This document shows, in pieces, positions 3,119 to 60,829 of a DNA stretch of 64,000 bases (position 1 is its first letter; each line of letters begins with the position of its first letter). The notes beneath the pieces were generated by a model that ran no database searches, had not been told where the DNA came from, and saw only the letters and a list, made by a program, of their open reading frames with translations. The stretch is from Gammaproteobacteria bacterium (GTDB lineage Bacteria > Pseudomonadota > Gammaproteobacteria > Poriferisulfidales > Poriferisulfidaceae): positions 57,329 to 121,328 of the forward strand of contig JAPOXW010000020.1 of NCBI GenBank assembly GCA_026706895.1, read 5' to 3'. The translations under genes and the position numbers were made by a program.

Positions 3119-6158
<3,040 letters not shown>

Positions 6159-6845: not shown

Positions 6846-6922
<77 letters not shown>

Positions 6923-19367: not shown

Positions 19368-19571
19368 ATGCGAACGACACTGAACATCGACGAGACCCTG
19401 CTGGCGCAGGCGCGGTTGCTCACCGACATCGAGTCGAAATCGAAATTGGTTCGCGAGGCGCTGAGGGCGCTGGTGGAGCGAGAGAGTGCCCGCCGGCTCG
19501 CAAAACTGGGCGGCAGCCAGCCTGAACTTCTGGATATTCCGCGCCGCCGTCTCGCCGATGATCCTAGCTGA
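19368..19571 (+). CDS. vapB: type II antitoxin VapB-family (Rv0623-like)
   Basis: 67 aa, MRTTLNIDETLLAQARLLTDIESKSKLVREALRALVERESARRLAKLGG; GGAGG SD; overlaps vapC by 14 nt. Confidence 0.8.
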   Translation: MRTTLNIDETLLAQARLLTDIESKSKLVREALRALVERESARRLAKLGGSQPELLDIPRRRLADDPS

Positions 19572-19929
19572 CACTTCCGTCTGGATCGAGCATTTCCGCG
19601 TCGGCAACGAGGCGTTGGCCCGCCTGCTCGACGAACATCAGGTGTGGGTCCATCCGTTCGTGATTGGCGAGATCGCCTGCGGCAACCTCGAGGATCGCAA
19701 GGAAATCCTGTCGGGGCTCACGCATCTTCCCGCGGTGCCGGTGGCGACGCATTCCGAAGCGCTGTTCTTCTTGGAGCGGAATCGGCTGGCAGGGCTCGGC
19801 ATCGGCTATGTCGATCTGCACCTGCTGGCGTCAGCGTCGCTGGCGCCACCGATGCGGTTGTGGACGCGGGACCGGCGACTCGGGGCGGTGGCGGATGGCA
19901 TGGGCTGCGCCTATGGACGTCACCACTAA
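19558..19929 (+). CDS. vapC: PIN-domain toxin VapC
   Basis: MILADTSVWIEHFR... PIN acidic residues (DTSV, GEIA, DLHLL). Confidence 0.85.
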   Translation: MILADTSVWIEHFRVGNEALARLLDEHQVWVHPFVIGEIACGNLEDRKEILSGLTHLPAVPVATHSEALFFLERNRLAGLGIGYVDLHLLASASLAPPMRLWTRDRRLGAVADGMGCAYGRHH

Positions 19930-19958
19930 AGTAAAGGATTTGACATGCATGTTCTACA

Positions 19959-21515
19959 ATGTGCTTTGTGCCGTTGCATAGACCCGTCAACCGTGCTGGA
20001 ACAGGGCAGATGACTGCTGAAATTGGGCTTCAAATAGAAAATACGGGCCCGTTATCGGTAGTGGACCAAACCCGCCTAGAAGTATCAAGGCGCACTGGTG
20101 CAGAAAAAAAATCATGCCTTGGGCAATTTCTAACACCTGCGAGCACGGCAGCATTTATGGCGGGACTTTTTCCCCGATCTCAAGGGGAATGCCGCTTGCT
20201 TGACGCTGGAGCAGGAATTGGTTCTCTTTCAAGTGCATTTTTGGAAAGGTGCGTAAATGGAGAAATGAAATTCGATGCAGTCCAGATTGCAGCGTTCGAA
20301 ATTGATCCGGCAATCCAAGAAGAACTGCAACGTTCTTTGTCCTACTACACCGAGAAATGTCCTTTATCCTATGAAATCGTCGGCGAAGATTTTGTAGAAG
20401 AGGCAGTCAATTCGATCCAGTTTCAAAAATGCAATTTCACGCACGCTATTCTGAATCCTCCCTACAAGAAGATCCGTAGCAACTCTAGATACCGGGAACT
20501 TACGCGTCAAGTTGGGATTGAGACTGTCAATCTTTATTCCACGTTTGTAGCTTTGGCCATCGCGCTGACCCAACCGAATGGACAGATCGTGGCAATTATC
20601 CCTCGCAGCTTTTGCAACGGGCCTTACTATCGCCCTTTCCGTGAATTTATTTTTGCTCACACTGCCATCCAGCATATACACCTATTCGCATCCCGGGACA
20701 AGGCCTTCAGGGATGATGATGTACTTCAGGAAACGATCATCATCCGGCTTGAGCGAGAGGCTAAACAGGGGTCTGTGACAGTTTCCACATCGACCGACAA
20801 CACTTTTTCCGACCTGACCGAACACACATATCCGTTTGAGCAAATCGTGCAGCCAGATAATTCTGAGCGATTTATTCATATTCCCACTTCTTCGACTATG
20901 GCCACGGGTCTTCCTCCGATCGTTCGCCACACGCTGGATGAATTGGGCATCAAGGTTTCCACTGGACCCGTAGTGGACTTTCGACTGAGGGAACACCTGC
21001 GCGAGATGCCAGGCCCAGATTGCGCCCCCTTGCTCTATCCCGGACACTTCAGCAATGGCGGCATCACATGGCCTGCTACCGGAGAAAAGAAGCGAAATGC
21101 CATTAGGCGCAGTGCCGATACTGAAAAGTGGCTATATCCCTGTGGATTCTATTGCGTGGTCAGGCGCTTTTCATCCAAGGAAGAAAAACGTCGAGTCGTG
21201 GCCAGTGTGGTCGACCCCAGTCCATTTGGCGATGCGGATGCACTCGGTTTTGAGAATCACCTGAACCTGTTCCACGAAAACAAGCGCAGTCTGCCACAAG
21301 CTCTTGCACACGGTCTCGCCGTATTCCTGAATTCGACTCTTGTCGATGACTATTTCAGACGTTTCAGCGGACACACCCAAGTTAATGCCACGGATTTGAA
21401 GTTCATGAAATATCCGAGTCGAGGCATGTTGCTTAAGCTTGGCAAGTGGGCCATGCGGAATGGGAAAATCACTCAAGCCATGATTGATAACCGGATACAT
21501 GCGCTCTTCACATGA
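19959..21515 (+). CDS. type II N6-adenine DNA methyltransferase, BsuBI/PstI-family (gamma class)
   Basis: FLTP (motif X), LLDAGAGIGSL (motif I, AdoMet), ILNPPYKK (motif IV NPPY); ~518 aa like M.PstI/M.BsuBI; lower GC than the flanks; alternative start ATG 20010. Confidence 0.8.
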   Translation: MCFVPLHRPVNRAGTGQMTAEIGLQIENTGPLSVVDQTRLEVSRRTGAEKKSCLGQFLTPASTAAFMAGLFPRSQGECRLLDAGAGIGSLSSAFLERCVNGEMKFDAVQIAAFEIDPAIQEELQRSLSYYTEKCPLSYEIVGEDFVEEAVNSIQFQKCNFTHAILNPPYKKIRSNSRYRELTRQVGIETVNLYSTFVALAIALTQPNGQIVAIIPRSFCNGPYYRPFREFIFAHTAIQHIHLFASRDKAFRDDDVLQETIIIRLEREAKQGSVTVSTSTDNTFSDLTEHTYPFEQIVQPDNSERFIHIPTSSTMATGLPPIVRHTLDELGIKVSTGPVVDFRLREHLREMPGPDCAPLLYPGHFSNGGITWPATGEKKRNAIRRSADTEKWLYPCGFYCVVRRFSSKEEKRRVVASVVDPSPFGDADALGFENHLNLFHENKRSLPQALAHGLAVFLNSTLVDDYFRRFSGHTQVNATDLKFMKYPSRGMLLKLGKWAMRNGKITQAMIDNRIHALFT

Positions 21516-22462
21516 GTAGTGGAAACGACCACATTCAGGCAGCGCAGGAAATCATCATCTTCCTAGGTTTGCTAAAGGCTCAGCAGAACGAGCGTTCAGC
21601 ATTATGTTTGTTGGCGTTGTTGAATTTAACCCCAGATAAAACATGGGCCGAATCGGAAAGCCCGCATATGGGCATTACTCCCATTATGGACTGGACGAGG
21701 GAACATTACGGCAGAGACTACGCTCCGAACACTCGGGAGACATTTCGGCGTCAAACGATGCATCAGTTTTGTGATGCGGGAATCGCCCTGTATAACCCAG
21801 ATGATCCTGATCGTCCGGTGAATAGCCCTAAAGCAGTTTATCAAGTTGCGCCAGCCGCTTTGGATTTGCTACGCCTGTATGAAACTTCTGCATGGGATGA
21901 TGCCCTTATATCCTATTTGGATAGGCATCCAACGCTCATGAGTCGCTATGAGAAAAAGCGCGAACAAAATCTTGTCTCCGTCACAATTCCACCAAATCAA
22001 GAGATAACCTTCAGCCCCGGCAATCACAGCAAACTTATTCGAGGAGTTATAGAGGAATTTGCCCCACGTTTTGCGCCGGGAAGCGTTTTGATTTACGCCG
22101 GTGACACTGGCAACAAGTGGGCTTATTGCGATACCGCCCTTATGGGCGAACTCGGTATTGATGTTGATTTACACGGCAAAATGCCTGACGTGATGTTGCA
22201 TTATGCTGAAAAGAATTGGTTGTTTTTGGTCGAGGCCGTTACCAGCCACGGACCGGTGGACGGCAAGCGTTATGAAGAATTAGCCGAACTCTGTTCCGGA
22301 GTCAAAGCCGGTCTGGTATATGTAACGGCCTTTCCCGACCGTTCTTCCATGCGAAAATTTCTTCCTGAAATTGCTTGGGAAACAGAAGCTTGGGTTGCTG
22401 ATTCTCCGTCTCACCTGATGCATTTCAATGGTACTCGTTTTCTTGGCCCTCATGACAGGTGA
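21512..22462 (+). CDS. BsuBI/PstI-family type II restriction endonuclease
   Basis: 316 aa, ATG overlaps the MTase stop (ATGA); size and position downstream of a PstI-type MTase match the BsuBI/PstI REase family; low GC. Confidence 0.65.
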   Translation: MSSGNDHIQAAQEIIIFLGLLKAQQNERSALCLLALLNLTPDKTWAESESPHMGITPIMDWTREHYGRDYAPNTRETFRRQTMHQFCDAGIALYNPDDPDRPVNSPKAVYQVAPAALDLLRLYETSAWDDALISYLDRHPTLMSRYEKKREQNLVSVTIPPNQEITFSPGNHSKLIRGVIEEFAPRFAPGSVLIYAGDTGNKWAYCDTALMGELGIDVDLHGKMPDVMLHYAEKNWLFLVEAVTSHGPVDGKRYEELAELCSGVKAGLVYVTAFPDRSSMRKFLPEIAWETEAWVADSPSHLMHFNGTRFLGPHDR

Positions 22463-22612
22463 CAGGCTGCAAACCCATAAAAGAGCTATACAAAATTGAT
22501 TCTCAAGGCGAATTTAATTATAATAAGTGCCCGGCATGAGCCGGGCCATCAATCCTTAACTATAGAGTCGCGTAACGCTTTGGTAACTAGCGGCATGATT
22601 GAGCGGTAGTCG

Positions 22613-23539
22613 ATGCCAATTCCCGACTTTCAGTCACTGATGCTACCCACCCTCAAGGCATTTAATGCCAGTGAGGAGATGCCGTTGTCGGAGGTCCGCA
22701 AGCAGGTCAAAGACGCCGAGGGGCTATCTGCTGAGGATATCCGGGAAATGCTTTCGAGTGGCCGACAGACAAAGTTCGCAAACCGTGTGAATTGGGCTGT
22801 GACCTACATGGAGCGCGCCCATCTTCTTGCTCGGGTTCGCCGTGGTGTGTACCGGTTGACGCAAGAAGGTAAGCGCTTGCTTGTTCAGGCACCTTCACGC
22901 ATCGACATCAACTTGCTTGGAGAATACCCTGATTTTGCCGAATGGCGGCAACGAGCAAACACGTCGCCTCGCGGCAAGGATGAGGGGACTAAGCAAAACG
23001 ATAACATTATCGAGACACCAGAGGAAGTGCTGGAAAGAGTTGTACAGCAATTGCGCAGCGAGCTGGAAGCGGATGTGCTGAGTCGGGTTCGTGATGCAGA
23101 GTCAAGTTTTCTTGAGCAGATTGTTGTCGACTTGCTGATCGCGATGGGCTACGGTGGTGGCGATGCCGCGAGAGGCCAAGTAACTGGACGTTCGGGCGAT
23201 GGGGGGATTGACGGCACGATTCGGGAAGATGCGCTCGGTTTGGACGAAGTTTATGTGCAGGCGAAAAGGAACAAAGACGGCAACACTGTGGGCGAAGGAG
23301 ATCTGCGCAATTTTGCTGGAGCGATTGATGCTGTGGGCACAACCAAAGGCGTGTTCGTTACTACGGCTGATTTTACGCGCGCTGCGAGAGAATACGTATC
23401 GCGAAGTCCGAAACGAATCATTCTGGTCGATGGTGCGGAACTTGCCCGCCTGATGGTCCAGCACGGGATTGGAGTACGTACACGAGTTCAAGAGGTCAAG
23501 CAGATCGACGAAGACTACTTCGATCAGGAAGCGATATAA
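22613..23539 (+). CDS. mrr: Mrr-family type IV (modification-dependent) restriction endonuclease
   Basis: 308 aa; N-terminal winged-helix Mrr_N, C-terminal Mrr_cat core (DLLIAMGYGG...GDGGIDG...VYVQAKR). Confidence 0.8.
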   Translation: MPIPDFQSLMLPTLKAFNASEEMPLSEVRKQVKDAEGLSAEDIREMLSSGRQTKFANRVNWAVTYMERAHLLARVRRGVYRLTQEGKRLLVQAPSRIDINLLGEYPDFAEWRQRANTSPRGKDEGTKQNDNIIETPEEVLERVVQQLRSELEADVLSRVRDAESSFLEQIVVDLLIAMGYGGGDAARGQVTGRSGDGGIDGTIREDALGLDEVYVQAKRNKDGNTVGEGDLRNFAGAIDAVGTTKGVFVTTADFTRAAREYVSRSPKRIILVDGAELARLMVQHGIGVRTRVQEVKQIDEDYFDQEAI

Positions 23540-23714
23540 GACCGTAAGCCCTTGCCATGTATAATGCGCGCTCGCAGGCTCGCCTGCGAAAATTCGCGTC
23601 CGAACCGACACGAGCGGTGGGTGCCCCCAGGGTTGCTGCGAGGGGTTCGGGCAAGTTGACAACCCGCAAGGCTTCGGAACTTGACAGCCCGGAGCCGCCA
23701 TCAGGAGGGCCGCA

Positions 23715-36296: not shown

Positions 36297-36632
36297 ATGC
36301 GGAGGCGTGTCTGCTCTTGGTATCATGAGAGCGTTCTCATGGCTTTTGGGCGCGAAATCAAGATGGAGTTCGAGCGAGTGAAAGTGAGTCCCGAGATGGT
36401 GGGGATCGTCGGCGGATGGCTGACCGTTCTCGTGTTCGTGTGGACCCTAGGCCAGGATATGAGCGATTTGCGCACGGACATGAGCGATCTGCGCGTGGAC
36501 ATGAGCGATCTGCGCACGGAGCTGAAGGGCGATATCGCGCATCTCAACGGACGCATGGCGCGTGTCGAAGGCTTGCTCGAAGGTTACATCGAGAGATCTC
36601 GGACTGGGGAAGATATTGCGGTAACCGAATGA
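36297..36632 (+). CDS. hypothetical membrane-anchored coiled-coil protein with tandem DMSDLR(T/V) repeats
   Basis: one TM helix (MVGIVGGWLTVLVFVWTL), then DMSDLRT-DMSDLRV-DMSDLRT-ELKGDIAHLNGRMARVEGLLEGYI heptad coiled coil; start uncertain (36297/36339/36363). Confidence 0.45.
   Translation: MRRRVCSWYHESVLMAFGREIKMEFERVKVSPEMVGIVGGWLTVLVFVWTLGQDMSDLRTDMSDLRVDMSDLRTELKGDIAHLNGRMARVEGLLEGYIERSRTGEDIAVTE
36456..36518 (+). repeat. 3 x 21-bp perfect/near-perfect tandem repeat (GAYATGAGCGATYTGCGCRYG) inside the membrane-protein gene
   Basis: gatatgagcgatttgcgcacg / gacatgagcgatctgcgcgtg / gacatgagcgatctgcgcacg, in frame, encoding DMSDLR(T/V). Confidence 0.85.
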
Positions 36633-36728
36633 TCCGATCAGACAGGTCTTTCGCCTTTGGGACAGAGCGGTTCTACTGAGCGAGCGAGAAAGGAGATATA
36701 GAGTTCCGGGCAATCACCGAGAGTTTTT

Positions 36729-37082
36729 GTGGGCAGTAAAACATCGAAGACTTTGGAGGAGGTGCTGAACCAGTTCTCTCCTGAGCAGCGCAAGAAAATC
36801 GACGAACGAACGGACGAACTGATCGCCGAAATCATGTCGTTGCGGGATTTGCGCAAAGTCCGGGAGCAGACTCAGGAGCATGTCGCCGAGGTGCTCGAAA
36901 TCACCCAGGAGAATGTTTCGCGCATTGAGCGACGTCGGGACCTCCTGGTCTCGACGCTCAGGCGGCACGTCGAAGCGTTAGGCGGGCGATTGAGCCTGAT
37001 CGCAAAGTTTCCCGACCGTCCTCCAGTGGAACTGACCGGCATCGCCGATTCGGATGACAGCGAATCTCCGGCTCGGTCGTAA
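36729..37082 (+). CDS. XRE-family HTH regulator of the HigA-like antitoxin type
   Basis: GTG start; SLRDLRKVREQTQEHVAEVLEITQENVSRIERRRDLLVSTLRRHVEALGGRLSLIAKFPD matches antitoxins usually paired with an upstream RelE/ParE/HigB toxin. Confidence 0.7.
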   Translation: MGSKTSKTLEEVLNQFSPEQRKKIDERTDELIAEIMSLRDLRKVREQTQEHVAEVLEITQENVSRIERRRDLLVSTLRRHVEALGGRLSLIAKFPDRPPVELTGIADSDDSESPARS

Positions 37083-51453: not shown

Positions 51454-53193
51454 TCAGGCCTTCGCCAGGGCCTCGACCATCCCGTGGATCTTTTCCGGCT
51501 GCGGGCAGGCCAGGATCTCCTGGCACTGCTTCTGCAGTATTTCGGACGAAACGTGGTTGATGATCTGCTTGATTTCGAGCAGGGAACCCGGATGCGTGCT
51601 GAATTCGCGCAGGCCGAGCCCGATCAACAGCCGGGTCAGGCGCGGGTTGCTGGCCATTTCGCCGCACATGCTGACCGGTGTGCCGGCCTGCCGGCCGGCC
51701 TGAATCGTGTGGTGGATCAGGAACAACACAGCCGGGTGCAGCGGGTCGAACAGGTAGTGGACCTGGTCGTCAACCCGGTCGATGGCCAGCGTGTACTGGA
51801 TCAGGTCGTTGGTCCCGATCGACAGGAAATCCAAATGATGGGCGAAGACACTGGCGGAGATGGCAGCGGCCGGCACCTCGATCATGCCCCCGATCTTGAT
51901 CTCCGGGTCGTATGCGGCGCCTTCGGATCCCAGTTCCTCCATGCAGTCGCGGATCAGGGCCAGACTCTGCGACAGTTCGGAGCTGTTGGTCAGCATGGGC
52001 AGCATGACGTGGACGGGCCCGTGCGCGGAGGCGCGCAGGATCGCACGCAACTGCGCCATGAAGACGGGCTTGTTCTGCAGGGATCGCCGGATCGCACGCA
52101 GGCCGAGGGCGGGGTTCGGCGCGATCGCGCCTTCGTAGTCCGGGTCGAATTCCTTGTCGGCACCCAGGTCCAGGGTGCGGATGGTCAGCGGCTTGCCGTC
52201 CAGCGCGACGACCAGATCCCGATACACCTCGTACTGTTCGTCGGTGCTGGCGCCTTCGGGGCGGTCGAGGTAGAAGAACTCGGTGCGGTACAGCCCGACG
52301 CCTTCCGCCTGAACCTCATGCACATGGGGGATCTCTTCGATCAGGTCGATGTTGCACTTTAACGTGACCGACTGTTTGTCGCGCGTGATGGTCGGCTTGT
52401 CGCGCAGCGCCATCAACTTCTCTTCCCGCTCCTGCTCCGCGCGCTGGTACTCCCGGTACTGGTCGACCAGCCAGTTCGCGTCGTCGGCGCACAGGATGGT
52501 GCCGCCGTGCCCGTCGATCAGCACGAGCTCGCCGTCCTCCAGCAGCATGCCCGCGTCGTGCAGGCCGACCACCGCCGGGATCTGCAGGCTGCGGGCCAGG
52601 ATGGCGGTGTGCGACATGGAACTGCCGAACTGGGTGACGAAGGCGGCGACGTTCTGGTGCTGGATCAGCACGGTGTCGGCCGGCGTCAGGTCGTCCGCGA
52701 CCACGATGCGGCCGGTCAGGTCGCGCTCCTGGACTTCGGCCTCGCCCTCTTCGGTCTCGCTCAGGTTCTCCTGCACCTTGCGGATGACATGCTGCACGTC
52801 GTTCTTGCGCGTGCGCAGGTAGGCGTCCTCCATGCTGTCGAACACGGCGACCAGTTGCTCCAGGGTGTCCTCCAGCGCCCATTCGGCGTTGCAGGACTGG
52901 GCGCGGATGGTCTCCGCGGGCATGTCCACCAGCATGGCGTCGTCCAGCATCAGCAGGTGGGCGTCGAGAAAGCCGGTCACTTCCTGGCGCATTTTTTCGG
53001 GCACCATGTCACGCACTTCGCGCAACTGCTTGCGGGATTCCTCCAGCGCCTCGTTCAGGCGCTCGACCTCGGACCCGATCTGGTCCGGCTCCAGGGTGCG
53101 CTTCGAGATATGGGTCTCACCACGCTTGAGGACGTGGACCCAGCCCTGGGTAATGCCTCGGGAAACCCCGATGCCGTTGATGATCATGGGCAT
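51454..53193 (-). CDS. ptsI: phosphoenolpyruvate-protein phosphotransferase (PTS enzyme I, no GAF domain)
   Basis: 579 aa with the EI PEP-utilising domain; no N-terminal GAF, so a plain EI rather than EI-Ntr. Confidence 0.85.
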   Translation of the reverse strand: MPMIINGIGVSRGITQGWVHVLKRGETHISKRTLEPDQIGSEVERLNEALEESRKQLREVRDMVPEKMRQEVTGFLDAHLLMLDDAMLVDMPAETIRAQSCNAEWALEDTLEQLVAVFDSMEDAYLRTRKNDVQHVIRKVQENLSETEEGEAEVQERDLTGRIVVADDLTPADTVLIQHQNVAAFVTQFGSSMSHTAILARSLQIPAVVGLHDAGMLLEDGELVLIDGHGGTILCADDANWLVDQYREYQRAEQEREEKLMALRDKPTITRDKQSVTLKCNIDLIEEIPHVHEVQAEGVGLYRTEFFYLDRPEGASTDEQYEVYRDLVVALDGKPLTIRTLDLGADKEFDPDYEGAIAPNPALGLRAIRRSLQNKPVFMAQLRAILRASAHGPVHVMLPMLTNSSELSQSLALIRDCMEELGSEGAAYDPEIKIGGMIEVPAAAISASVFAHHLDFLSIGTNDLIQYTLAIDRVDDQVHYLFDPLHPAVLFLIHHTIQAGRQAGTPVSMCGEMASNPRLTRLLIGLGLREFSTHPGSLLEIKQIINHVSSEILQKQCQEILACPQPEKIHGMVEALAKA

Positions 53194-53465
53194 GGTTCGG
53201 CGCCTTCTCCAAATCCGCTCTCAAACAGGGCGACGAGGGCCTGCATGGCCTCTTGTTCGTCCGGGCCGCTGGTGAACAGCCGCACCGGGGTGCCGTGGGT
53301 GGCCGCCAGCATCATGATGCTCATGATGCTCTTGGCGTTGGCCCGCTTGCCTTCCTTTTCGATTTCCATTTGCGCCTGGTACTGGCTCGCTTCGCTGACC
53401 AACTTGGCGGCGGCCCGCGCGTGCAGCCCGAGCTTGTTGACGACGGTAGCGTTTTTTTCGATCAT
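53184..53465 (-). CDS. phosphocarrier protein HPr/NPr
   Basis: 93 aa; His-15 motif NKLGLHARAAAKL; regulatory Ser region. Confidence 0.85.
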   Translation of the reverse strand: MIEKNATVVNKLGLHARAAAKLVSEASQYQAQMEIEKEGKRANAKSIMSIMMLAATHGTPVRLFTSGPDEQEAMQALVALFESGFGEGAEPCP

Positions 53466-53863
53466 TCGGACTCTCCCGCTTCGATAATGATGCCGATGCG
53501 GCCATTGGTGGCCAGGCTTTCGGCAAGTTGACTTCGGCTGCGTTGCTGCAGGTTGAACAGCTTCACGACCATCGGCAAATTGATGCCGGAGACGAGGGTG
53601 GTTTCCGGATATTCACGCATCAGCCGCTTCGCCAGGTTGTACGGTGTGGCGCCGTACAGGTCGGACAGGATCAGCAGGCCGTCCTTGCAGTCCAGCGATG
53701 CGCAAAGCTCCCGGAGTTCGGCGAGGGCGGCGTCCAGGTCGCCGTCCTCGATGACTCCGTAACAGGCCAGGTTTTCGGGGGGGCGCGCGAAAATCCGCGA
53801 CGCGACGTCCACCAGCTGCTGACCCAGCCGGTGATGCGTGATTGTCAGCATGCCTACGCTCAT
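53462..53863 (-). CDS. PTS EIIA component, mannose/fructose family
   Basis: 133 aa; N-terminal GMLTITHHRLG active-site His context like ManX IIA (IVIGTHG); LILSDLYGATP; GINLPMVVKL. Confidence 0.75.
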   Translation of the reverse strand: MSVGMLTITHHRLGQQLVDVASRIFARPPENLACYGVIEDGDLDAALAELRELCASLDCKDGLLILSDLYGATPYNLAKRLMREYPETTLVSGINLPMVVKLFNLQQRSRSQLAESLATNGRIGIIIEAGESE

Positions 53864-54726
53864 GGTTGGGCCTCCATGTCCCGGTGCAGCATGGTGATCT
53901 GCAGGGTGGTGCTGTCCGAAAGCAATTCGGCCAGTTGTTCCACCAGGTAGACCGAGCGGTGCTGTCCGCCGGTGCAGCCGATCGAGATGTTCAGGTAATG
54001 CCGCCCCGCCTCGACGAAAGAGGGGATCCAGTGATCCAGAAACTTCTTCAGGTCTTCGAGCATGGCGGCGGCCTGTGGCTGATTCGAAAGATAGTCGCGA
54101 ACCGCGGGATCCGTGCCGTTGAGCGCGCGCAATTCGTCCACCCAGTGCGGGTTTGGCAGGCAGCGCGAGTCGAACACAAAGTCCGAATCGCTCGGCACCC
54201 CGCTCCGGTAGGCGAAGGATTGTAGCAATACTGACAATGGGGCGCGATCGAGTTTCAGGCGCTGGCGCAGCAGGGTGCGCAGCTCATGGACGTTGGTGCG
54301 GGAGGTGTCCAGGCGCAGATCGGCCAGGTTGGCGATCGCCGCAAGGCACTCCCGTTCCTGCCGTACCGCCTCGCGCAGGGTCGGGACCCGGTCGGCCAGC
54401 GGGTGCCGGCGGCGCGTATCGTTGAAGCGCCGGATCAGGGTGTCTTCGTCGGAGTCGAGGAACATCACGGTGATATCGCAGGGCAATTCCCGGATCTGTT
54501 CCAGGATGGACGGGAGCCGGTCCAGGTCTTTCGGCAACGCGCGGGCATCCATGCCGATGGCGGCTTGCTTCGGGTAGTGCGAGTCCGGCTGCATCAGCAG
54601 TTCCACGTACTCCAGCAAGAGGGTCGGCGGCATGTTGTCGACGCAGTGCGCGCCGAAGTCCTCCAGCGTGTCCAACGCCACCGATTTTCCCGAGCCCGAC
54701 AGGCCGCTGACGATGACGAGCTGCAT
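53860..54726 (-). CDS. rapZ: RNase adapter protein RapZ (YhbJ)
   Basis: VIVSGLSGSGKSVAL Walker A; 288 aa; between ptsN and HPr as in the rpoN operon. Confidence 0.9.
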   Translation of the reverse strand: MQLVIVSGLSGSGKSVALDTLEDFGAHCVDNMPPTLLLEYVELLMQPDSHYPKQAAIGMDARALPKDLDRLPSILEQIRELPCDITVMFLDSDEDTLIRRFNDTRRRHPLADRVPTLREAVRQERECLAAIANLADLRLDTSRTNVHELRTLLRQRLKLDRAPLSVLLQSFAYRSGVPSDSDFVFDSRCLPNPHWVDELRALNGTDPAVRDYLSNQPQAAAMLEDLKKFLDHWIPSFVEAGRHYLNISIGCTGGQHRSVYLVEQLAELLSDSTTLQITMLHRDMEAQP

Positions 54727-54729
54727 GGT

Positions 54730-55182
54730 TCAGGGCTGGGCGAGGGCCGCCAGCAGTGGCTTGGCCTCGCGGGAGGTGCGAAGCGTCTTGAGGTGCTCGG
54801 GCGAGTCCAGGATCTCCGCCAGTTCCTTCAGGTATTGCAGGTGGATGTCCTCGGCTTCGCTCGGCACCGCCAGTGCCACGAACACGTCGACCGGCTGCCC
54901 GTCGACCGCGTCGAAATCCACGCCCTTGGTCAGGGTCAGGATGGCGGCAGAACTGTGCGTCCCGTCGGGTATCCGGCAATGCGGGATGGCGACCCCGCCA
55001 CCGAGCCCGGTGCTGCCGAGGCGCTCGCGCGCGGTCAGCAGGTCCAGCAGTGTGCGGGAGCCGGTGGTTTCCAGGCCTCCGGCCAGGGCCTCGCTCAGGA
55101 TTTCGAGCGCACGCTTCTTGCTGCCGATTTGCTGCTGCAACAGGAGGCTGTCGGGGCGCAGCAAATCCAGGATGCCTCGCAT
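54730..55182 (-). CDS. ptsN: PTS IIA-Ntr (nitrogen regulatory EIIA)
   Basis: 150 aa; active-site His region GGGVAIPHCRI. Confidence 0.85.
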   Translation of the reverse strand: MRGILDLLRPDSLLLQQQIGSKKRALEILSEALAGGLETTGSRTLLDLLTARERLGSTGLGGGVAIPHCRIPDGTHSSAAILTLTKGVDFDAVDGQPVDVFVALAVPSEAEDIHLQYLKELAEILDSPEHLKTLRTSREAKPLLAALAQP

Positions 55183-55189
55183 GGCCGCC

Positions 55190-55510
55190 TCAGTTCAGCT
55201 GATGGTGGGTAATCTGGCTCTGATGGTGGTCTTTGCGTTTTTCCTTGTACTTGAGGATCTGTCGATCCAACTTCCCGGTCAGCGTGTCGATCGCTGCATA
55301 CATGTCGCTGTGTTCGGCGCGCGCGTGCATGTGGTGGCCCCGGACGTGCATGGTGGCTTCCGCGCGGTGCGTGTCGTGTTCGACCGCAAGCGTGATCTGG
55401 GTATTGATCACGTCATCGAAGTGACGGGTTAGGCGTTTAAATTTGGTGTGGATGTAATCGCGGAGCGGAGAGGTGATTTCTAGGTGGTGTCCGGTGAGTT
55501 TCAAGTTCAT
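55190..55510 (-). CDS. hpf: ribosome hibernation promoting factor
   Basis: MNLKLTGHHLEITSPLRDYI... YfiA/HPF fold; ATG 55510 preferred over the extended track ORF. Confidence 0.85.
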   Translation of the reverse strand: MNLKLTGHHLEITSPLRDYIHTKFKRLTRHFDDVINTQITLAVEHDTHRAEATMHVRGHHMHARAEHSDMYAAIDTLTGKLDRQILKYKEKRKDHHQSQITHHQLN

Positions 55511-55595
55511 AACAATACTTCCTCCGTGGCCCATCCATTATATACAGAGGGGAAGGGGTCTGGACACCCGGGCTGGAATCCGTCTGGGGTAGACT

Positions 55596-56477
55596 ATGAG
55601 CCGTTTTGGAATGTGTCCAATGCGCGAGGAATTCGGTGTGTCCGCGAAGAAGGCAGGTACATTCGCCTGGATCGTGACCGGTCTGGCGCTGGCGGCCGCA
55701 CCTCCGGCGCTGGCCGAATCCGCCTTGCACAAAGCGGCCCGCGCGGGAAATTTCGCGGAAGTGCAGAAACTGCTGGATTCAGGCGCGGACGTCAATTTAT
55801 TCAAGCAGGGCAAGACCCCGCTGCATCATGCGGCCCTGATTAATCCGAAACCCGAGGTTGTAGAGGCTTTGCTGGATGCCGGGGCCCAGGTGGGCGTGAA
55901 AGGGCATAACGACATGACGGCGCTGCATTTCGCGGTGGTCAACCCGACCCCGATGTCCGCACATCCGCAGTCGAACGTGGAAGCGGACAACAAATCAGGC
56001 GAGACGGCCCGGCGCCTGGAGGTGATCCAACTGCTGCTGGATGCTGGGGCGACGACGTATGCGAAGAACGAGGACGGCCTGACCCCCTTGCATCTGGCGG
56101 CGGGCCACTATTGGGATCCGGAGGTCGTGGACACGTTGCTGCTGGCGGGAGCATTCGTGGATGCAAGGGCCGAGAACGATGCGACCCCGTTGCATTTCGC
56201 GGCGGCCTTCAACGGAAACCCGGAGGTGACGCGATTGCTGCTGGATGCCGGGGCCGATGCGAACGCGCAGGATTCCGGGGGCCTGACGCCCCTGCATTTG
56301 GCGTCGCGCTTCAGGGGGTATGCGACGGTCGCACAGCTGCTGCTGGATGCGGGCGCGGACGTCAATGCGAAAGACCGCGAAGGCAAGACCCCGCTGGATT
56401 ATCACGCGGAGAGAGAAAACCCCAGTTGGCCCCAGGTTCTCGAGGATGTTGGCGGGAAATGCAACAGGAGCTGTTGA
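55596..56477 (+). CDS. secreted ankyrin-repeat protein
   Basis: signal peptide (AWIVTGLALAAAPPALA) then >=6 ANK repeats (G.TPLH.AA..G...V..LL.AGA); GC content like the host; probable start ATG 55620. Confidence 0.7.
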   Translation: MSRFGMCPMREEFGVSAKKAGTFAWIVTGLALAAAPPALAESALHKAARAGNFAEVQKLLDSGADVNLFKQGKTPLHHAALINPKPEVVEALLDAGAQVGVKGHNDMTALHFAVVNPTPMSAHPQSNVEADNKSGETARRLEVIQLLLDAGATTYAKNEDGLTPLHLAAGHYWDPEVVDTLLLAGAFVDARAENDATPLHFAAAFNGNPEVTRLLLDAGADANAQDSGGLTPLHLASRFRGYATVAQLLLDAGADVNAKDREGKTPLDYHAERENPSWPQVLEDVGGKCNRSC

Positions 56478-56561
56478 CGTACAGTGGACATTAACCTGAT
56501 TTTTAAAAATTTCACTACGCTGTGCAGGGATAAAAATCCGTATAAATATCGAGACTAGATG

Positions 56562-56978
56562 TTAATCAGATGTTTTAGTGCTTTTTTCTGCATCCAACAA
56601 GAATTCACAACATTCAAGAGTAAATTCTGCAATGCGTTCCATGTAAGCATCCATTTTTTCGCTACTGGCCTGAACCTGTTGCACCCAGAATTTGGCTTCT
56701 TTCCGGTATTCTTGTAATTGGTATTTTTTCTGGATGGTGTTTTTGGTTGTTTGAAGAAAAATTTCTCTTAAGGCTATCCGATCAATTCCAATTTCCGAGA
56801 AATGCTTGTGGTGGTGAACACGGTTACGGGCCTTTAGTTCCTCTTTGAACTCTTTGTTGAAATCATTAATGAAATCAGTGGCAAACTTCTTCACTCTACC
56901 TTTGGCATGTGCAGGCACTATATCTTTAAAGTACTCTTTGAGTCGCTGCTGGAACTGATAGCATCGACTAAAGTACAT
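56562..56978 (-). CDS. hypothetical protein (low GC), possibly the C-terminal part of a frameshifted gene
   Basis: 138 aa, Lys/Glu-rich helical, HHHKH; overlaps the next ORF by 61 nt in another frame; AT-rich islet. Confidence 0.35.
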   Translation of the reverse strand: MYFSRCYQFQQRLKEYFKDIVPAHAKGRVKKFATDFINDFNKEFKEELKARNRVHHHKHFSEIGIDRIALREIFLQTTKNTIQKKYQLQEYRKEAKFWVQQVQASSEKMDAYMERIAEFTLECCEFLLDAEKSTKTSD

Positions 56979-57304
56979 TTCACAGAATTGGTAATGTGGC
57001 TGCTACGAGTTACCGGAAGGTCTCGAAATGGATATCTTCGGAAGTAATACTCACATTCTTTTAATGAATTAATTATTAGATTTAGTTCTATATACCTTAC
57101 GGTGACTAAGTGCTGCTTTTCGACTTCCTCGGAAAAGTTGAATGCGCGCTCATACTTTTCGGTGTGGTTTGAGGCAATATCATCGAAAAATAATGTATGC
57201 TCGAACTTTTTTTCATTCCATTCTCTCCAGCCAGGATAGTCTTCCAAATCACGTATCCATCTTTGGATGGCCTCCGCTATCTGCGTCCGAGAAATATCTG
57301 TCAT
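56918..57304 (-). CDS. hypothetical protein (low GC), possibly the N-terminal part of a frameshifted gene
   Basis: 128 aa; last ~25 aa are Ser-rich out-of-frame-looking sequence; the downstream frame is open from a TAG at about 57003. Confidence 0.35.
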   Translation of the reverse strand: MTDISRTQIAEAIQRWIRDLEDYPGWREWNEKKFEHTLFFDDIASNHTEKYERAFNFSEEVEKQHLVTVRYIELNLIINSLKECEYYFRRYPFRDLPVTRSSHITNSVKCTLVDAISSSSDSKSTLKI

Positions 57305-57350
57305 TCCGAGCTTTGATGGGCTTGTTCAAAGGTTTGTATGGGAGGCTAAT

Positions 57351-57677
57351 CTATTCGGTGACGCGATAAACAAGTCTTTGCAAACTTCCGCTGACAATAT
57401 CAATCACGCTCGGGACAAGCACCTGCAGTTCCTGCAGACGCGTTCTGGAAGCAGCCATGACGATCACGGGTATAGGCAGCTTTTCCAGATTCTGCTGGTA
57501 TTCAATGCCTTGGTCGGCAGTGACAAACGCGTCAAACTTATGCATGGCTGCCTGTTGCAGCAGCGCGCCGTTCTTGCTTCCTGCCCAGCCCATTTGTTGG
57601 ACTGTGTGCAATTCGAACGATTCAGGAAAGAACGCCTTGATCTGTCTGGGAATGGACTCGTCAAGTAATAGTTTCAT
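57351..57677 (-). CDS. DUF5615-family PIN-like putative toxin
   Basis: 108 aa, MKLLLDESIP...FVTAD... PIN-like; immediately downstream of and overlapping a DUF433 gene. Confidence 0.65.
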   Translation of the reverse strand: MKLLLDESIPRQIKAFFPESFELHTVQQMGWAGSKNGALLQQAAMHKFDAFVTADQGIEYQQNLEKLPIPVIVMAASRTRLQELQVLVPSVIDIVSGSLQRLVYRVTE

Positions 57678-57885
57678 CCAGGCTCTCGACCAGCACTGCT
57701 TTTGCCTGATTCAGTACCTCGACCGCTTGGCTTCGCGAGACCGTGGGATGGTTGTCCAGAAACTCATCGATGGAGTCGCCTGCTTCCAGATATTCCATCA
57801 GGATGCGTACAGGAACCCGGGTGCCGGAGAAGACCGGCGTTCCACCAAGAATCTCGGCATCTTTGCTGATCACCGTATCTGTCAT
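57661..57885 (-). CDS. DUF433-family putative antitoxin
   Basis: 74 aa; ILGGTPVFSGTRVPVRILMEYLEAGDSIDEFLDNHPTVSRSQ is the DUF433 signature; 17-nt overlap with the DUF5615 gene. Confidence 0.65.
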   Translation of the reverse strand: MTDTVISKDAEILGGTPVFSGTRVPVRILMEYLEAGDSIDEFLDNHPTVSRSQAVEVLNQAKAVLVESLDETIT

Positions 57886-57979
57886 GGCTTATTCCTTGGC
57901 AAGCAATTATCAGATTATACGCCCGATTCTGGAGCGTCTGCTGATTGCCGCTTACCCGTGAATTCTTCGAAATTCTGTC

Positions 57980-58080
57980 TCAGAGCTGGAATTCTTCTCC
58001 TAGGTAAATCTCGCGTACTTGTGGATTTTCCACGATTTTCTCGCCTTTTTCCTCAGCGATTGACGTGCAGAGTACCTGTG
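57980..58080 (-). pseudogene. displaced duplicate of the lptB 3' end (gene-end remnant)
   Basis: reverse strand encodes ...SIAEEKGEKIVENPQVREIYLGEEFQL*, homologous to the true LptB C-terminus (...[28 protein letters not shown]); ~55 bp of ~85% nucleotide identity with 59043-59100. Confidence 0.55.
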
Positions 58081-58307
58081 GATAGTATGTGTTGCGGGAG
58101 CATCAGTGCAATCAGGCGGCAACTACATCACCAACCCCTCGTACATGAAACATATATAGACACGATATATAGATCTAACACTAGAAACTTTGTGTAGTGT
58201 GCACCATTTTCTGCTACAATTCGCATCTACTACCCCCGTCATTTCGCTGGCGGGCCGCAGGGTCTTAGGAAGAAATTCTTGAGGCCCTTTGCTTTATCTG
58301 GATGAGA

Positions 58308-58928
58308 ATGCGCACAGCCGTTTATATAGATGGATTCAACTTCTATTATGGGGCGGTAAAAGATACGGCCTATAAGTGGCTAGATTTCAAACAATTGTGC
58401 AAAATCATATTAAAACCACATCACAACATTACTTCTATTGTGTACTGAACGGCCAAAGTCAGATGGATGCCTGCAGACCCGGGTGCTCCTAGGCGACAAG
58501 CTACTTACTTCAACGCGATTAAATCTTATATTCCGGAATTGTCTATTATTCGTGGTCATTTTTTGGAAACTAAATTGCTTTGCAGGCCAGTCAACCCGAA
58601 GCACGGGAATCTGATTGAGGTTTTCCGTACAGAAGAGAAAGGATCTGATGTTAATCTGGCAGTGCACATGGTAAATGATGCGCATAAAGACAAATTCGAC
58701 TGCGCGATAGTTATCAGCAATGACAGTGATTTGGCAGAAGCAATGCGGATCGTGAAAAACGAATGCGGGAAAATGGTCGGGCTTTTCACGCCTTGGAGGA
58801 GGTATGCATCAAAACAACTTATGATGCATTCAAGCTTCCAACGAACGATTCGTAAAAGCAGTTTAGCGAAAAGCCAACTTCCGAATCCTATACCAGGGAC
58901 AAAAATTTATAAACCTAAGCAATGGTAA
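58308..58928 (+). pseudogene. NYN-domain (PIN-like RNase) gene interrupted by an in-frame TGA
   Basis: MRTAVYIDGFNFYYGAVKDTAYKWLDFKQLCKIILKPHHNITSIVY-TGA(58446-58448)-TAKVRWMPADPGAPRRQATYFNAIKSY...EKGSDVNLAVHMVNDA...VISNDSDL; both halves in one frame give a full NYN domain; low GC. Confidence 0.6.
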
Positions 58929-59042
58929 ATGCAAATGGCACTTACTGCGAAAGGACTTGGCATTGAAAACTGTCCCGAATTGAATTCAATGCGAGAGCGA
59001 ATAAGAAAACCCCAAGAATAAAACGTAAGTGCAGTTTTTTCC

Positions 59043-59768
59043 TCAGAGTTTGAATTCAGCTCCCAGGTAAGTCTCGCGTACTTGCGGATTTTCCAGGATC
59101 TCGTCGGGTTCGCCCTCGGCTATGATGCTGCCCTCGGAGAGGATGTAGGCACGGCGGCAGATGCTGAGGGTCTCGCGCACATTGTGGTCGGTGATGATGA
59201 TGCCGATGCCGCGCTCCTGCAATTGCTGGATGATCGACTTGATGTCGGCCACGTGCAGGGGGTCCACGCCGGCGAACGGTTCGTCCAGCAGGATGAAGGC
59301 GGGGTCCATCGCCAGCGCGCGGGCGATCTCGACCCTCCGGCGTTCTCCGCCCGACAGCGAAAACCCGCGGCTGTCGCGGATTTCGGCAATGGAGAATTCC
59401 TCAAGAAGAAGTTCCAGGCGCGCTTCCCGTTCTTCCTTAGACAGGGACAGTTGCTCAAGCACACCCAAGACGTTCTCCTCCACCGTCAGGCGGCGGAACA
59501 CGGAAGGTTCCTGGGGGAGGTAGCCGATGCCCCGGCGGGCACGCTGGCTCATGGACAGCCCGGTGATGTCCTGGGTGTTCAGGAAGATCTGGCCCCGGTC
59601 GCAGGGCACCAGCCCCGTGATCATGTAGAAGCAGGTCGTCTTGCCTGCACCGTTCGGGCCAAGCAGCCCGACCACCTCGTGGTCGCTTGCGTGCAACTCG
59701 ACCTCCGAGACGACCTGTCGGTCGCGGTAGGACTTGCACAGGTCCTGCGCTTCGAGCGTGGCCATCAA
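59043..59768 (-). CDS. lptB: LPS export ABC transporter ATP-binding protein LptB
   Basis: GPNGAGKTT Walker [16 protein letters not shown] signature, [11 protein letters not shown] Walker B; 241 aa. Confidence 0.9.
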
Positions 59769-60829
59769 TCAGAGTCGGTCTTCAGGCGGATTCGCACCCG
59801 CTCGGAGGGCTTCCGGGTGACGGGAGTCTCCACGCGTTCCTCGTCGATCAGGTAGACGATTTCGTGTCCCGTGACCTGGTGCGCGTCGACGCGCAGATTG
59901 ACGTCTTTCTTCAGGATCGCCTTGCGCTGCGGAATCTGGTAGAAGATGCTGCCGGCGCTTGCGCGGAGCGGTTTCCCGGAATCGAGGATCTGGGTCCAGC
60001 GGGCGTTGCCTTCGGCGTGCAGGGCCTGGACCCGGTCGCCTTCGGCGTGCACCGTGAGCCGGTCGGCGAGCAGGACCATGTCTCCTTGCGTGGCACGCAC
60101 GTCCCCGTGGTAGACGCTGACCTCCTTCTGGGCGTCCCACTCCATCCGTTCCGCGCTCAGGTCGAGCGTTTCCTCCGAATTGTCCGCGGCGTGTGCGGTG
60201 CCGAACGCTTCCTTCAGGATTTTCTCCAGCAGCGCCTGCGTGGGCTTTTCCGTGGACGGAGGGAACTGGCGGGCCTGCACGTCCTGCTGCAGCTGGCCGC
60301 CCGAGCCGTCCAACTGGTAGTCCAGCCCGGTGCCGCGCATCACCGCATGGGATTGGCTGAGCACGACCGCCTGCTCGCTGTAGACTCGTCCGTTCTCCGC
60401 GTCCAAGGTCAGCGATTCGCCGCGCATCAGGACCGGGGAATAGTCCGGGGGGTCGAGCAAGAGTTCCACGTTTTCATCCAGGGTGACCCGGGTCTCCCGG
60501 ATTTCCCCGTGCCGAGCCGAGGCCGAGGAATTTTCGAACGCGGGGTCGAGCCAATGCAAACGGGGGGCATCGAGGTTCAGGATTTCGCTGCCGAGATACT
60601 GGTCCAGCCGTTCGGCGACGACTTCGTAAAGCAGTTCTCCCTTCAGGTCCCGGATCCGGTGGCGTACCTGCAGGTAGCTGTTCTCGGGGACCCCTTTGTC
60701 AGGAGCCGAAGCGGTTTCCTCCGGGGTCGGGGTTCGGGTCAGGGCCCACAGGCCGATGACGACGACCAGCGCGAGCAGCAGGGTCAGCAGCCGGCGGAGG
60801 TTCATTATTTTCTGAGGATCCAGTCGCAC
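59765..60829 (-). CDS. apparent LptC-LptA fusion protein (LPS transport bridge)
   Basis: single 354-aa ORF; N-terminal TM anchor plus LptC-like domain (aa ~1-190), then an LptA/OstA-N-like domain ([20 protein letters not shown]...GNARWTQ...[15 protein letters not shown]); no stop or frame change between them; probable start ATG 60805. Confidence 0.55.

Follow-up and report, generated by a model that had tools for sequence, protein, structure and literature searches.

We report that rpoN, the gene for sigma-54, is missing from its canonical place between lptB and hpf in a 64-kb stretch of DNA from a gammaproteobacterial genome (assembly GCA_026706895.1, contig JAPOXW010000020.1, positions 57,329–121,328), referred to here as the window. 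The absence is genuine, goes far back and is a defining trait of the clade 'Candidatus Porisulfidus'/Porisulfidales, and it is neither an assembly error nor a recent displacement. The most parsimonious history is a single deletion of rpoN on the stem of this clade, with the ankyrin-repeat gene that now stands in the vacated slot gained much later. A preliminary description of the window had recorded the missing gene and had proposed that foreign DNA displaced it in this particular genome; the record stands, and the comparison with relatives leads to a different account of how it came about.

Three kinds of search agree that rpoN is absent from between lptB and hpf, and that no rpoN-like open reading frame (ORF) was overlooked in the window. 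The RpoN-box motif occurs in none of the six frames of the whole 64 kb, and an RpoN protein from an outgroup gave no match in the window by tblastn at E ≤ 10. A profile hidden Markov model (HMM) built from 54 RpoN sequences, for which the positive control scored 758 bits, returned nothing below E = 2 in the window, and it found no remnant of the gene when applied to the window and to 17 clade loci translated in six frames. None of the clade loci has an rpoN match within about 10 kb of the slot.

The slot itself is well defined. Its upstream border is lptB (59043–59765, minus strand; Pfam ABC_tran and BCA_ABC_TP_C), which encodes the ABC ATPase of the lipopolysaccharide (LPS) exporter and is 51–65% identical to the outgroup lptB genes that precede rpoN. 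The downstream border is hpf (55190–55510, minus strand; Pfam Ribosomal_S30AE; NCBIfam TIGR00741, 105 bits), the gene for the ribosome hibernation-promoting factor, and 3,532 bp separate the two. In Escherichia coli the canonical cluster runs kdsD-kdsC-lptC-lptA-lptB-rpoN-hpf-ptsN-rapZ-npr, and the window keeps the order and orientation of both flanks, including rapZ and the genes of the nitrogen-related phosphotransferase system (PTS-Ntr). It departs from the canonical cluster in that rpoN is gone, lptC and lptA are fused, a clade-specific TATAAT box stands before hpf and an accessory island occupies the place of rpoN. The genomic context of rpoN (lptABC, kdsCD, PTS-Ntr, hpf and yhbJ) has been described as conserved (Francke et al. 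2011, PMC3162934). The locus is the canonical rpoN cluster minus rpoN: its defining feature fails and all else is kept.

A scan of species-representative genomes with RapZ identified 13 relatives at 69–99% RapZ identity, most of them labelled 'Candidatus Porisulfidus', and in the same scan outgroups begin at approximately 51%. Seven of the 13 are complete chromosomes of 1.57–2.02 Mb, all sponge-derived metagenome-assembled genomes (OZ241993.1, OY288106.1, OZ220694.1, OZ220480.1, OY764335.1, OZ244883.1 and OZ243950.1). The supplement of Robbins et al. 2021 places two members of the clade, from the sponges Rhopaloeides odorabile and Aplysina aerophoba, in Gammaproteobacteria with TsSOB as order, family and genus, and gives them genomes of 1.8–1.9 Mb; the order name Porisulfidales is in use in a 2025 paper (PMC12625764). 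The slot is without rpoN in every one of the 12 other species-level genomes of the clade that have both lptB and hpf, and also in one more clade locus, which starts inside the gap. Outgroup loci with lptB plus hpf (or ptsN) have rpoN between these borders without exception, in all 52 from genomes and all 55 from metagenomes (107/107). A metagenome scan for intermediate lineages added two crown-group loci and nothing between 52% and 68% RapZ identity.

We reconstructed the branching order of the clade with a neighbour-joining tree of six concatenated linked proteins. The locus L081 (individual loci are designated by L numbers) is basal, followed by L014 with L015, then by L013 and finally by a crown group to which the window belongs. 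The slot is empty in the three deepest branches, and the lptB stop codon is followed by the hpf start codon after only 86 bp (L081), 84 bp (L014) and 75 bp (L015). L013 holds a 1.66-kb AbiEi/AbiEii module, and across all loci the gap ranges from 75 to 6,383 bp with differing sets of genes. Because these deepest branches share a junction of less than 90 bp, we conclude that rpoN was deleted once, in the ancestor of the clade. The empty slots also establish that the loss predates the ankyrin gene and well predates the strain-specific AT-rich cassettes.

These observations bear directly on the proposal that an incoming AT-rich islet and the ankyrin gene recently displaced rpoN in this strain. The islet does differ in composition, with a guanine-plus-cytosine (GC) content of 39–53% against 65%, and its most AT-rich part is found in this strain only. 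However, the absence of rpoN in 12 out of 12 relatives with both borders, three of them with an empty slot and one, L006, with only the ankyrin gene in it, contradicts a displacement in this genome. In its GC content the ankyrin gene resembles the host genome, and it has been vertically conserved throughout the crown group; the HMM found no rpoN fragments left behind. Comparison with related genomes instead reveals an arrangement that is typical of the lineage, which the preliminary description had itself listed as an outcome that would count against its reading. We therefore consider recent displacement to be very improbable.

An artefact of assembly or binning, by which contigs bearing lptB and hpf were joined in a chimaera that skips rpoN, is less probable still, and we give it almost no weight. 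The source is a metagenome scaffold, and two short contigs from other samples break within hpf, so the idea has some footing. However, the same arrangement with the same 3.5-kb gap is present on a 140-kb metagenome scaffold from ENA, sample SAMN13943208, which an exact-protein search with RapZ identified, and on a Logan contig, with 100% identity for 18 of the 18 proteins tested (these are other collections, which does not imply independent samples). The seven complete, single-contig chromosomes of relatives also have no rpoN in the slot.

The deletion from the slot raises the question of what became of sigma-54 in the genome as a whole. The absence of rpoN was established over the 64-kb window and over approximately 20 kb around the slot in each relative, and this leaves room for a relocated gene through which transcription by sigma-54 would still operate. 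Several lines of evidence make relocation unlikely. The clean junctions of less than 90 bp in the deep branches point to deletion, and not to excision and reinsertion from a cluster that is otherwise kept in 107 of 107 cases. Neither the GAFTGA motif nor an activator-type Walker A motif occurs in any of the six frames of the window, which amounts to about 3–4% of the genome. The window holds five −24/−12 consensus sites where 5.9 are expected, a chance-level count that gives relocation no excess of sites to draw on and is too weak to weigh either way. Sigma-54 is also typically missing from small host-associated genomes (PMC3162934). The clean junction in basal genomes, the invariant linkage elsewhere and the small, host-associated genomes together favour loss over relocation, and rpoN has most probably been lost from the genome altogether.

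This pattern is familiar from other bacteria. More than 90% of diderm species without sigma-54 are endosymbionts, mostly with small genomes, and those listed as lacking it belong to Buchnera, Rickettsia, Ehrlichia, Bartonella, Francisella and Neisseria (Francke et al. 2011, PMC3162934). Like these host-associated diderms, the clade has small genomes (1.57–2.0 Mb), retains LPS export genes and has rpoN out of its slot. It differs in that its genomes exceed the <1.5-Mb class stressed in that study, and in that the absence of rpoN is established here over the window and the surroundings of the slot, and that of activator motifs over the window. The sponge symbionts of this clade are, we assume, extracellular and not intracellular.

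With rpoN gone, the genes downstream of it have an altered upstream region. A perfect TATAAT box lies at 55537–55542 on the minus strand of the window, 26 nt upstream of the hpf ATG, and a perfect TATAAT is found 26–37 nt before the hpf ATG in 14 of 14 clade loci, including those in which the surroundings are otherwise unalignable. A ribosome-binding site of the GGAGG type follows the box in the clade loci. No TATAAT occurs within 120 nt upstream of hpf in any of 54 outgroup loci, in which hpf starts within approximately 120 nt of rpoN and the coding sequence of rpoN occupies much of that stretch. Judged from its sequence, the box is probably the −10 element of a clade-specific promoter of the sigma-70 type for hpf-ptsN-rapZ, which would have taken over from transcription of the rpoN operon. 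The suggestion of the preliminary description that co-regulation of hpf, ptsN and rapZ with rpoN is broken is correct in substance, but the break is old and was apparently compensated by the clade-specific box.

At L003:1–260 and L004:1–300, from two other metagenomes with a RapZ identical to that of the window, the C-terminal end of a VapC/PIN-like frame (...DCMIAAAAEGIGATLATRH) is joined to hpf at about codon 44; both contigs stop 50–90 nt beyond the junction. It thus seems that, in some strains, another insertion of the toxin–antitoxin type has taken the place of the TATAAT box and the initial half of hpf.

Next to hpf, the vacated slot holds a gene for an ankyrin-repeat protein (55596–56477, plus strand; Pfam Ank_2, 209 bits in five stretches), which is divergent from hpf and has a host-like GC content of approximately 61–66%. 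Its product has an N-terminal segment that resembles a signal peptide, with KK, a hydrophobic run and a candidate ALA|ES cleavage motif. Syntenic orthologues with 62–93% amino-acid identity stand beside hpf in the crown-group loci, with the exception of L009, in which an AbiE cassette separates the two genes. No ankyrin orthologue is found at the slot in L013, L014, L015 or L081. The arrival of the gene dates to the base of the crown group, and it is not recent foreign DNA. The contents that had been described for the gap, an ankyrin gene and AT-rich accessory DNA, are thus confirmed by Pfam and by base composition.

Ankyrin-repeat proteins of sponge symbionts have been reported to interfere with phagocytosis. 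The protein described here shares with such eukaryote-like ankyrins its multiple repeats, its signal-peptide-like N terminus and its sponge association, and relatives add further ankyrin, EF-hand and collagen-like genes at the site. It differs from them in being known from its sequence alone, and its secretion is predicted. We know of no description that links such ankyrins to this chromosomal slot. The enrichment of eukaryote-like proteins in sponge-associated bacteria has been discussed more broadly (PMC12625764).

Between the ankyrin gene and lptB, positions 56480–59040 have a GC content of 39–53%, compared with approximately 65% in the flanks. The most AT-rich part (39–41% GC) comprises two overlapping ORFs of 138 and 128 amino acids (56562–57304, minus strand). 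They have no significant match to a Pfam, NCBIfam or PHROG family, and apart from one 41-nt match they are not present in any other clade locus. Next to them lies an apparently intact pair of genes that overlap by 17 nt, a putative toxin of the PIN-like DUF5615 family (57351–57677, minus strand; 25.9 bits against a Pfam cut-off of 23.8) and a putative antitoxin of the DUF433 family (57661–57885, minus strand; 63 bits, cut-off 23.6). Adjacent, overlapping small genes with both families above their cut-offs match what is expected of a DUF433/DUF5615 toxin–antitoxin-like module, and its activity is predicted on that basis. Closer to lptB, an ORF with a truncated NYN domain (58467–58928, plus strand) matches positions 63–125 of the 145 of Pfam NYN and positions 61–209 of the 210 of phrog_7929. 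Because the latter match begins only at position 61, approximately 60 residues are missing from the start of the ORF, which is probably a pseudogene.

The cassette of the DUF433/DUF5615 pair appears to move between species. Positions 57348–58003 are 94% identical at the DNA level to positions 3329–3984 of L085, a different species, and the proteins are 99% (DUF433) and 93% identical, whereas the flanking lptB and ankyrin–hpf DNA of L085 is just 78–86% identical to that of the window. This difference suggests a recent exchange of the cassette between species at the same site. We searched the islet for DNA matches in phage and plasmid collections and found none.

Two sequence elements in the gap appear to be traces of earlier events. 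A direct repeat of 82 nt duplicates the 3′ end of lptB, with the functional copy, which contains the stop codon, at 59042–59123 and a displaced, non-functional copy at 57979–58060. The copies are 78% identical to each other, and the displaced one shares 88% identity with the L007 lptB 3′ end. Comparable extra copies occur in L005, L010, L012 and L086. The second element is a conserved non-coding sequence of approximately 115 nt (58185–58302), with copies of 85–91% identity in the gaps of L005, L008, L010, L011, L012, L085 and L086. Because the element directly precedes abiEi in L005, L008 and L085, the copy in the window is best read as the upstream leftover of an AbiE cassette, the genes of which are gone. 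In L005, L010, L012 and L086 the element is followed by a copy of the lptB 3′ end. An Rfam scan of 55000–60000 at E ≤ 1 found no RNA family, and the element is thus not a known RNA. The sole tRNA of the window (6846–6922) is unrelated to the gap.

In relatives, the interval bounded by the lptB and ankyrin-gene 3′ ends holds a variety of cargo. In L006 it is almost empty (46 bp). AbiEi/AbiEii genes occupy the site in L005, L008, L010 and L085, and L009 has AbiEii placed between the ankyrin gene and hpf. A secreted EF-hand protein of approximately 350 amino acids (for example, L007:7079–8119) is encoded at the site in L007 to L012 and L085, and L008 and L011 have additional large ankyrin proteins, one of which, in L008 (6627–8222), has 531 amino acids. 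L016 encodes an AAA-ATPase/PDDEXK protein together with a protein that has collagen repeats and a YadA-like anchor (L016:2991–8134). Across species, eukaryote-like proteins are concentrated at this single site.

Genomic islands and integration hot spots are well known at the 3′ ends of conserved genes, in particular those of tRNA and transfer-messenger RNA (tmRNA). As in such islands, variable cargo is found here at a single site, the 3′ end of the target gene is duplicated, the composition is deviant and the cargo is rich in toxin–antitoxin and abortive-infection genes. The site differs from islands of the tRNA/tmRNA type in that the target is the protein-coding gene lptB, the copies examined have no integrase, and the cargo consists of small single cassettes instead of one large element.

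Taken together, the observations are consistent with a history in four steps, which we consider highly probable as a whole: an ancestral deletion of rpoN, followed by a new promoter for hpf, the gain of the ankyrin gene and a turnover of cassettes. In the first step, which the clean junctions show, rpoN was deleted once in the ancestor of 'Ca. Porisulfidus' (GTDB order TsSOB/Porisulfidales), and fewer than 90 bp then separated lptB from hpf. In the second, the block of hpf, ptsN, rapZ, the EIIA gene, npr and the enzyme-I gene would have come under the new promoter of the sigma-70 type, for which the box and its conservation are observed and the activity is predicted. In the third, which synteny and the tree show, the crown group acquired at its base the gene for the putatively secreted ankyrin protein, inserted beside this promoter and divergent from it. 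In the fourth, the stretch from the lptB 3′ end to that of the ankyrin gene became a landing site at which cassettes were gained, eroded and swapped between species. This last step builds on the observed repeats and variable content, and a plausible mechanism of insertion follows from them. The likeliest one would be recombination or site-specific integration at a 70–80-nt segment of the lptB 3′ end, which would be duplicated at each insertion; either a site-specific integrase acting in trans or homologous exchange with the lptB 3′ end as its anchor may have been at work. Read from lptB, the gap of the window is one such mosaic of an NYN fragment, an AbiE upstream remnant, the displaced lptB 3′ end, the DUF433/DUF5615 pair, the two AT-rich ORFs and the ankyrin gene.

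Several points weigh against this history. The tree rests on just six linked proteins and on neighbour-joining without support values, and every genome involved is metagenome-assembled. That rpoN is also absent outside the window and the slot regions is inferred. A consensus promoter scan of 55100–59900 calls nothing at the TATAAT box, which fits its weak −35 hexamer (the best candidate, chosen by eye, matches 3 of 6 positions). No integrase or recombinase is encoded among the gap ORFs of the window or the scanned gap ORFs of L005, L007, L008, L009, L013 and L016, and homologous exchange from strain to strain could produce the same repeats.

The genes bordering the slot include a further departure from the canonical cluster. 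The preliminary description had both canonical blocks present in canonical orientation, and Pfam and NCBIfam bear this out, except that the separate lptC and lptA genes it listed are one fused ORF. This ORF (59765–60805, minus strand) encodes 346 amino acids as called, or up to 354 (it is open to 60829), with Pfam LptC at residues 17–187 and LptD_N at 225–331, and it exceeds the cut-offs of both NCBIfam equivalogs, with 80 bits against 38 for LptC and 94 bits against 72 for LptA. The fusion is present in every clade locus, whereas the genes are separate in outgroups. Among the homologues in the matches listed (41–94% identity), 41 of 43 are fused and the other two are truncated entries. An engineered LptC–LptA fusion works for LPS transport in vitro (PMC12065857), and we found no description of a natural one. 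The natural fusion may be the more unusual feature of the region.

Upstream of 60805 follow yrbG, kdsD and kdsC, also on the minus strand. On the other side of the slot, also on the minus strand and identified by Pfam and NCBIfam, hpf is followed by ptsN (54730–55182), rapZ (53860–54726), a gene of the EIIA-Man type (53462–53863), npr for NPr (53184–53465) and an enzyme-I gene (51454–53193). The EIIA-Man-type gene between rapZ and npr is also seen in many outgroup loci. The enzyme-I product has 579 amino acids, and the E. coli PtsP-type model aligned to it only from position 175 on; it therefore lacks the part of the model in which the N-terminal GAF domain of EI-Ntr lies.

Elsewhere in the window, at approximately 19486–23540 and immediately upstream of rpsB, there is a second islet of low GC (48–51%). 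Its genes specify a PIN-domain protein, a methylase of the Eco57I type and two endonucleases, a restriction enzyme of the BsuBI/PstI type and one of the Mrr type, and it is another defence islet inside a housekeeping region. A GC dip (approximately 56%) at 36297–37082 contains two short adjacent ORFs, the second with a helix-turn-helix domain, which may be another toxin–antitoxin-like pair.

The loss of sigma-54 in reduced symbiont genomes is already known, and the case described here is a well-resolved new example, not a new phenomenon. It leaves the current understanding of sigma-54 and genome reduction unchanged, and a specialist would not be surprised by it. It does add one more LPS-bearing, host-associated lineage that appears to have dropped sigma-54, and the TATAAT box illustrates how a block that is normally co-transcribed with rpoN may be rewired after the loss. 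The missing gene deserves to be recorded as a marker of the clade. In addition, the short intergenic site, at which eukaryote-like proteins and toxin–antitoxin or abortive-infection cassettes turn over from species to species, could be of use as a marker for strain typing and as a source of candidate genes for the interaction of these bacteria with their hosts.

More speculatively, and as a combined proposal that we regard as rather doubtful, the vacated junction may have become the preferred landing pad of the lineage for defence cassettes and for genes that act on the host, encoding ankyrin, EF-hand and collagen/YadA-like proteins that are secreted; the ankyrin gene would be the oldest of these and would share an 85-bp divergent control region with hpf. 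If so, a symbiosis factor and the genes for ribosome hibernation and PTS-Ntr would be placed under one control region. On the same reading, the LptC–LptA fusion of this lineage would be a natural version of a construct that has so far been made only in the laboratory.

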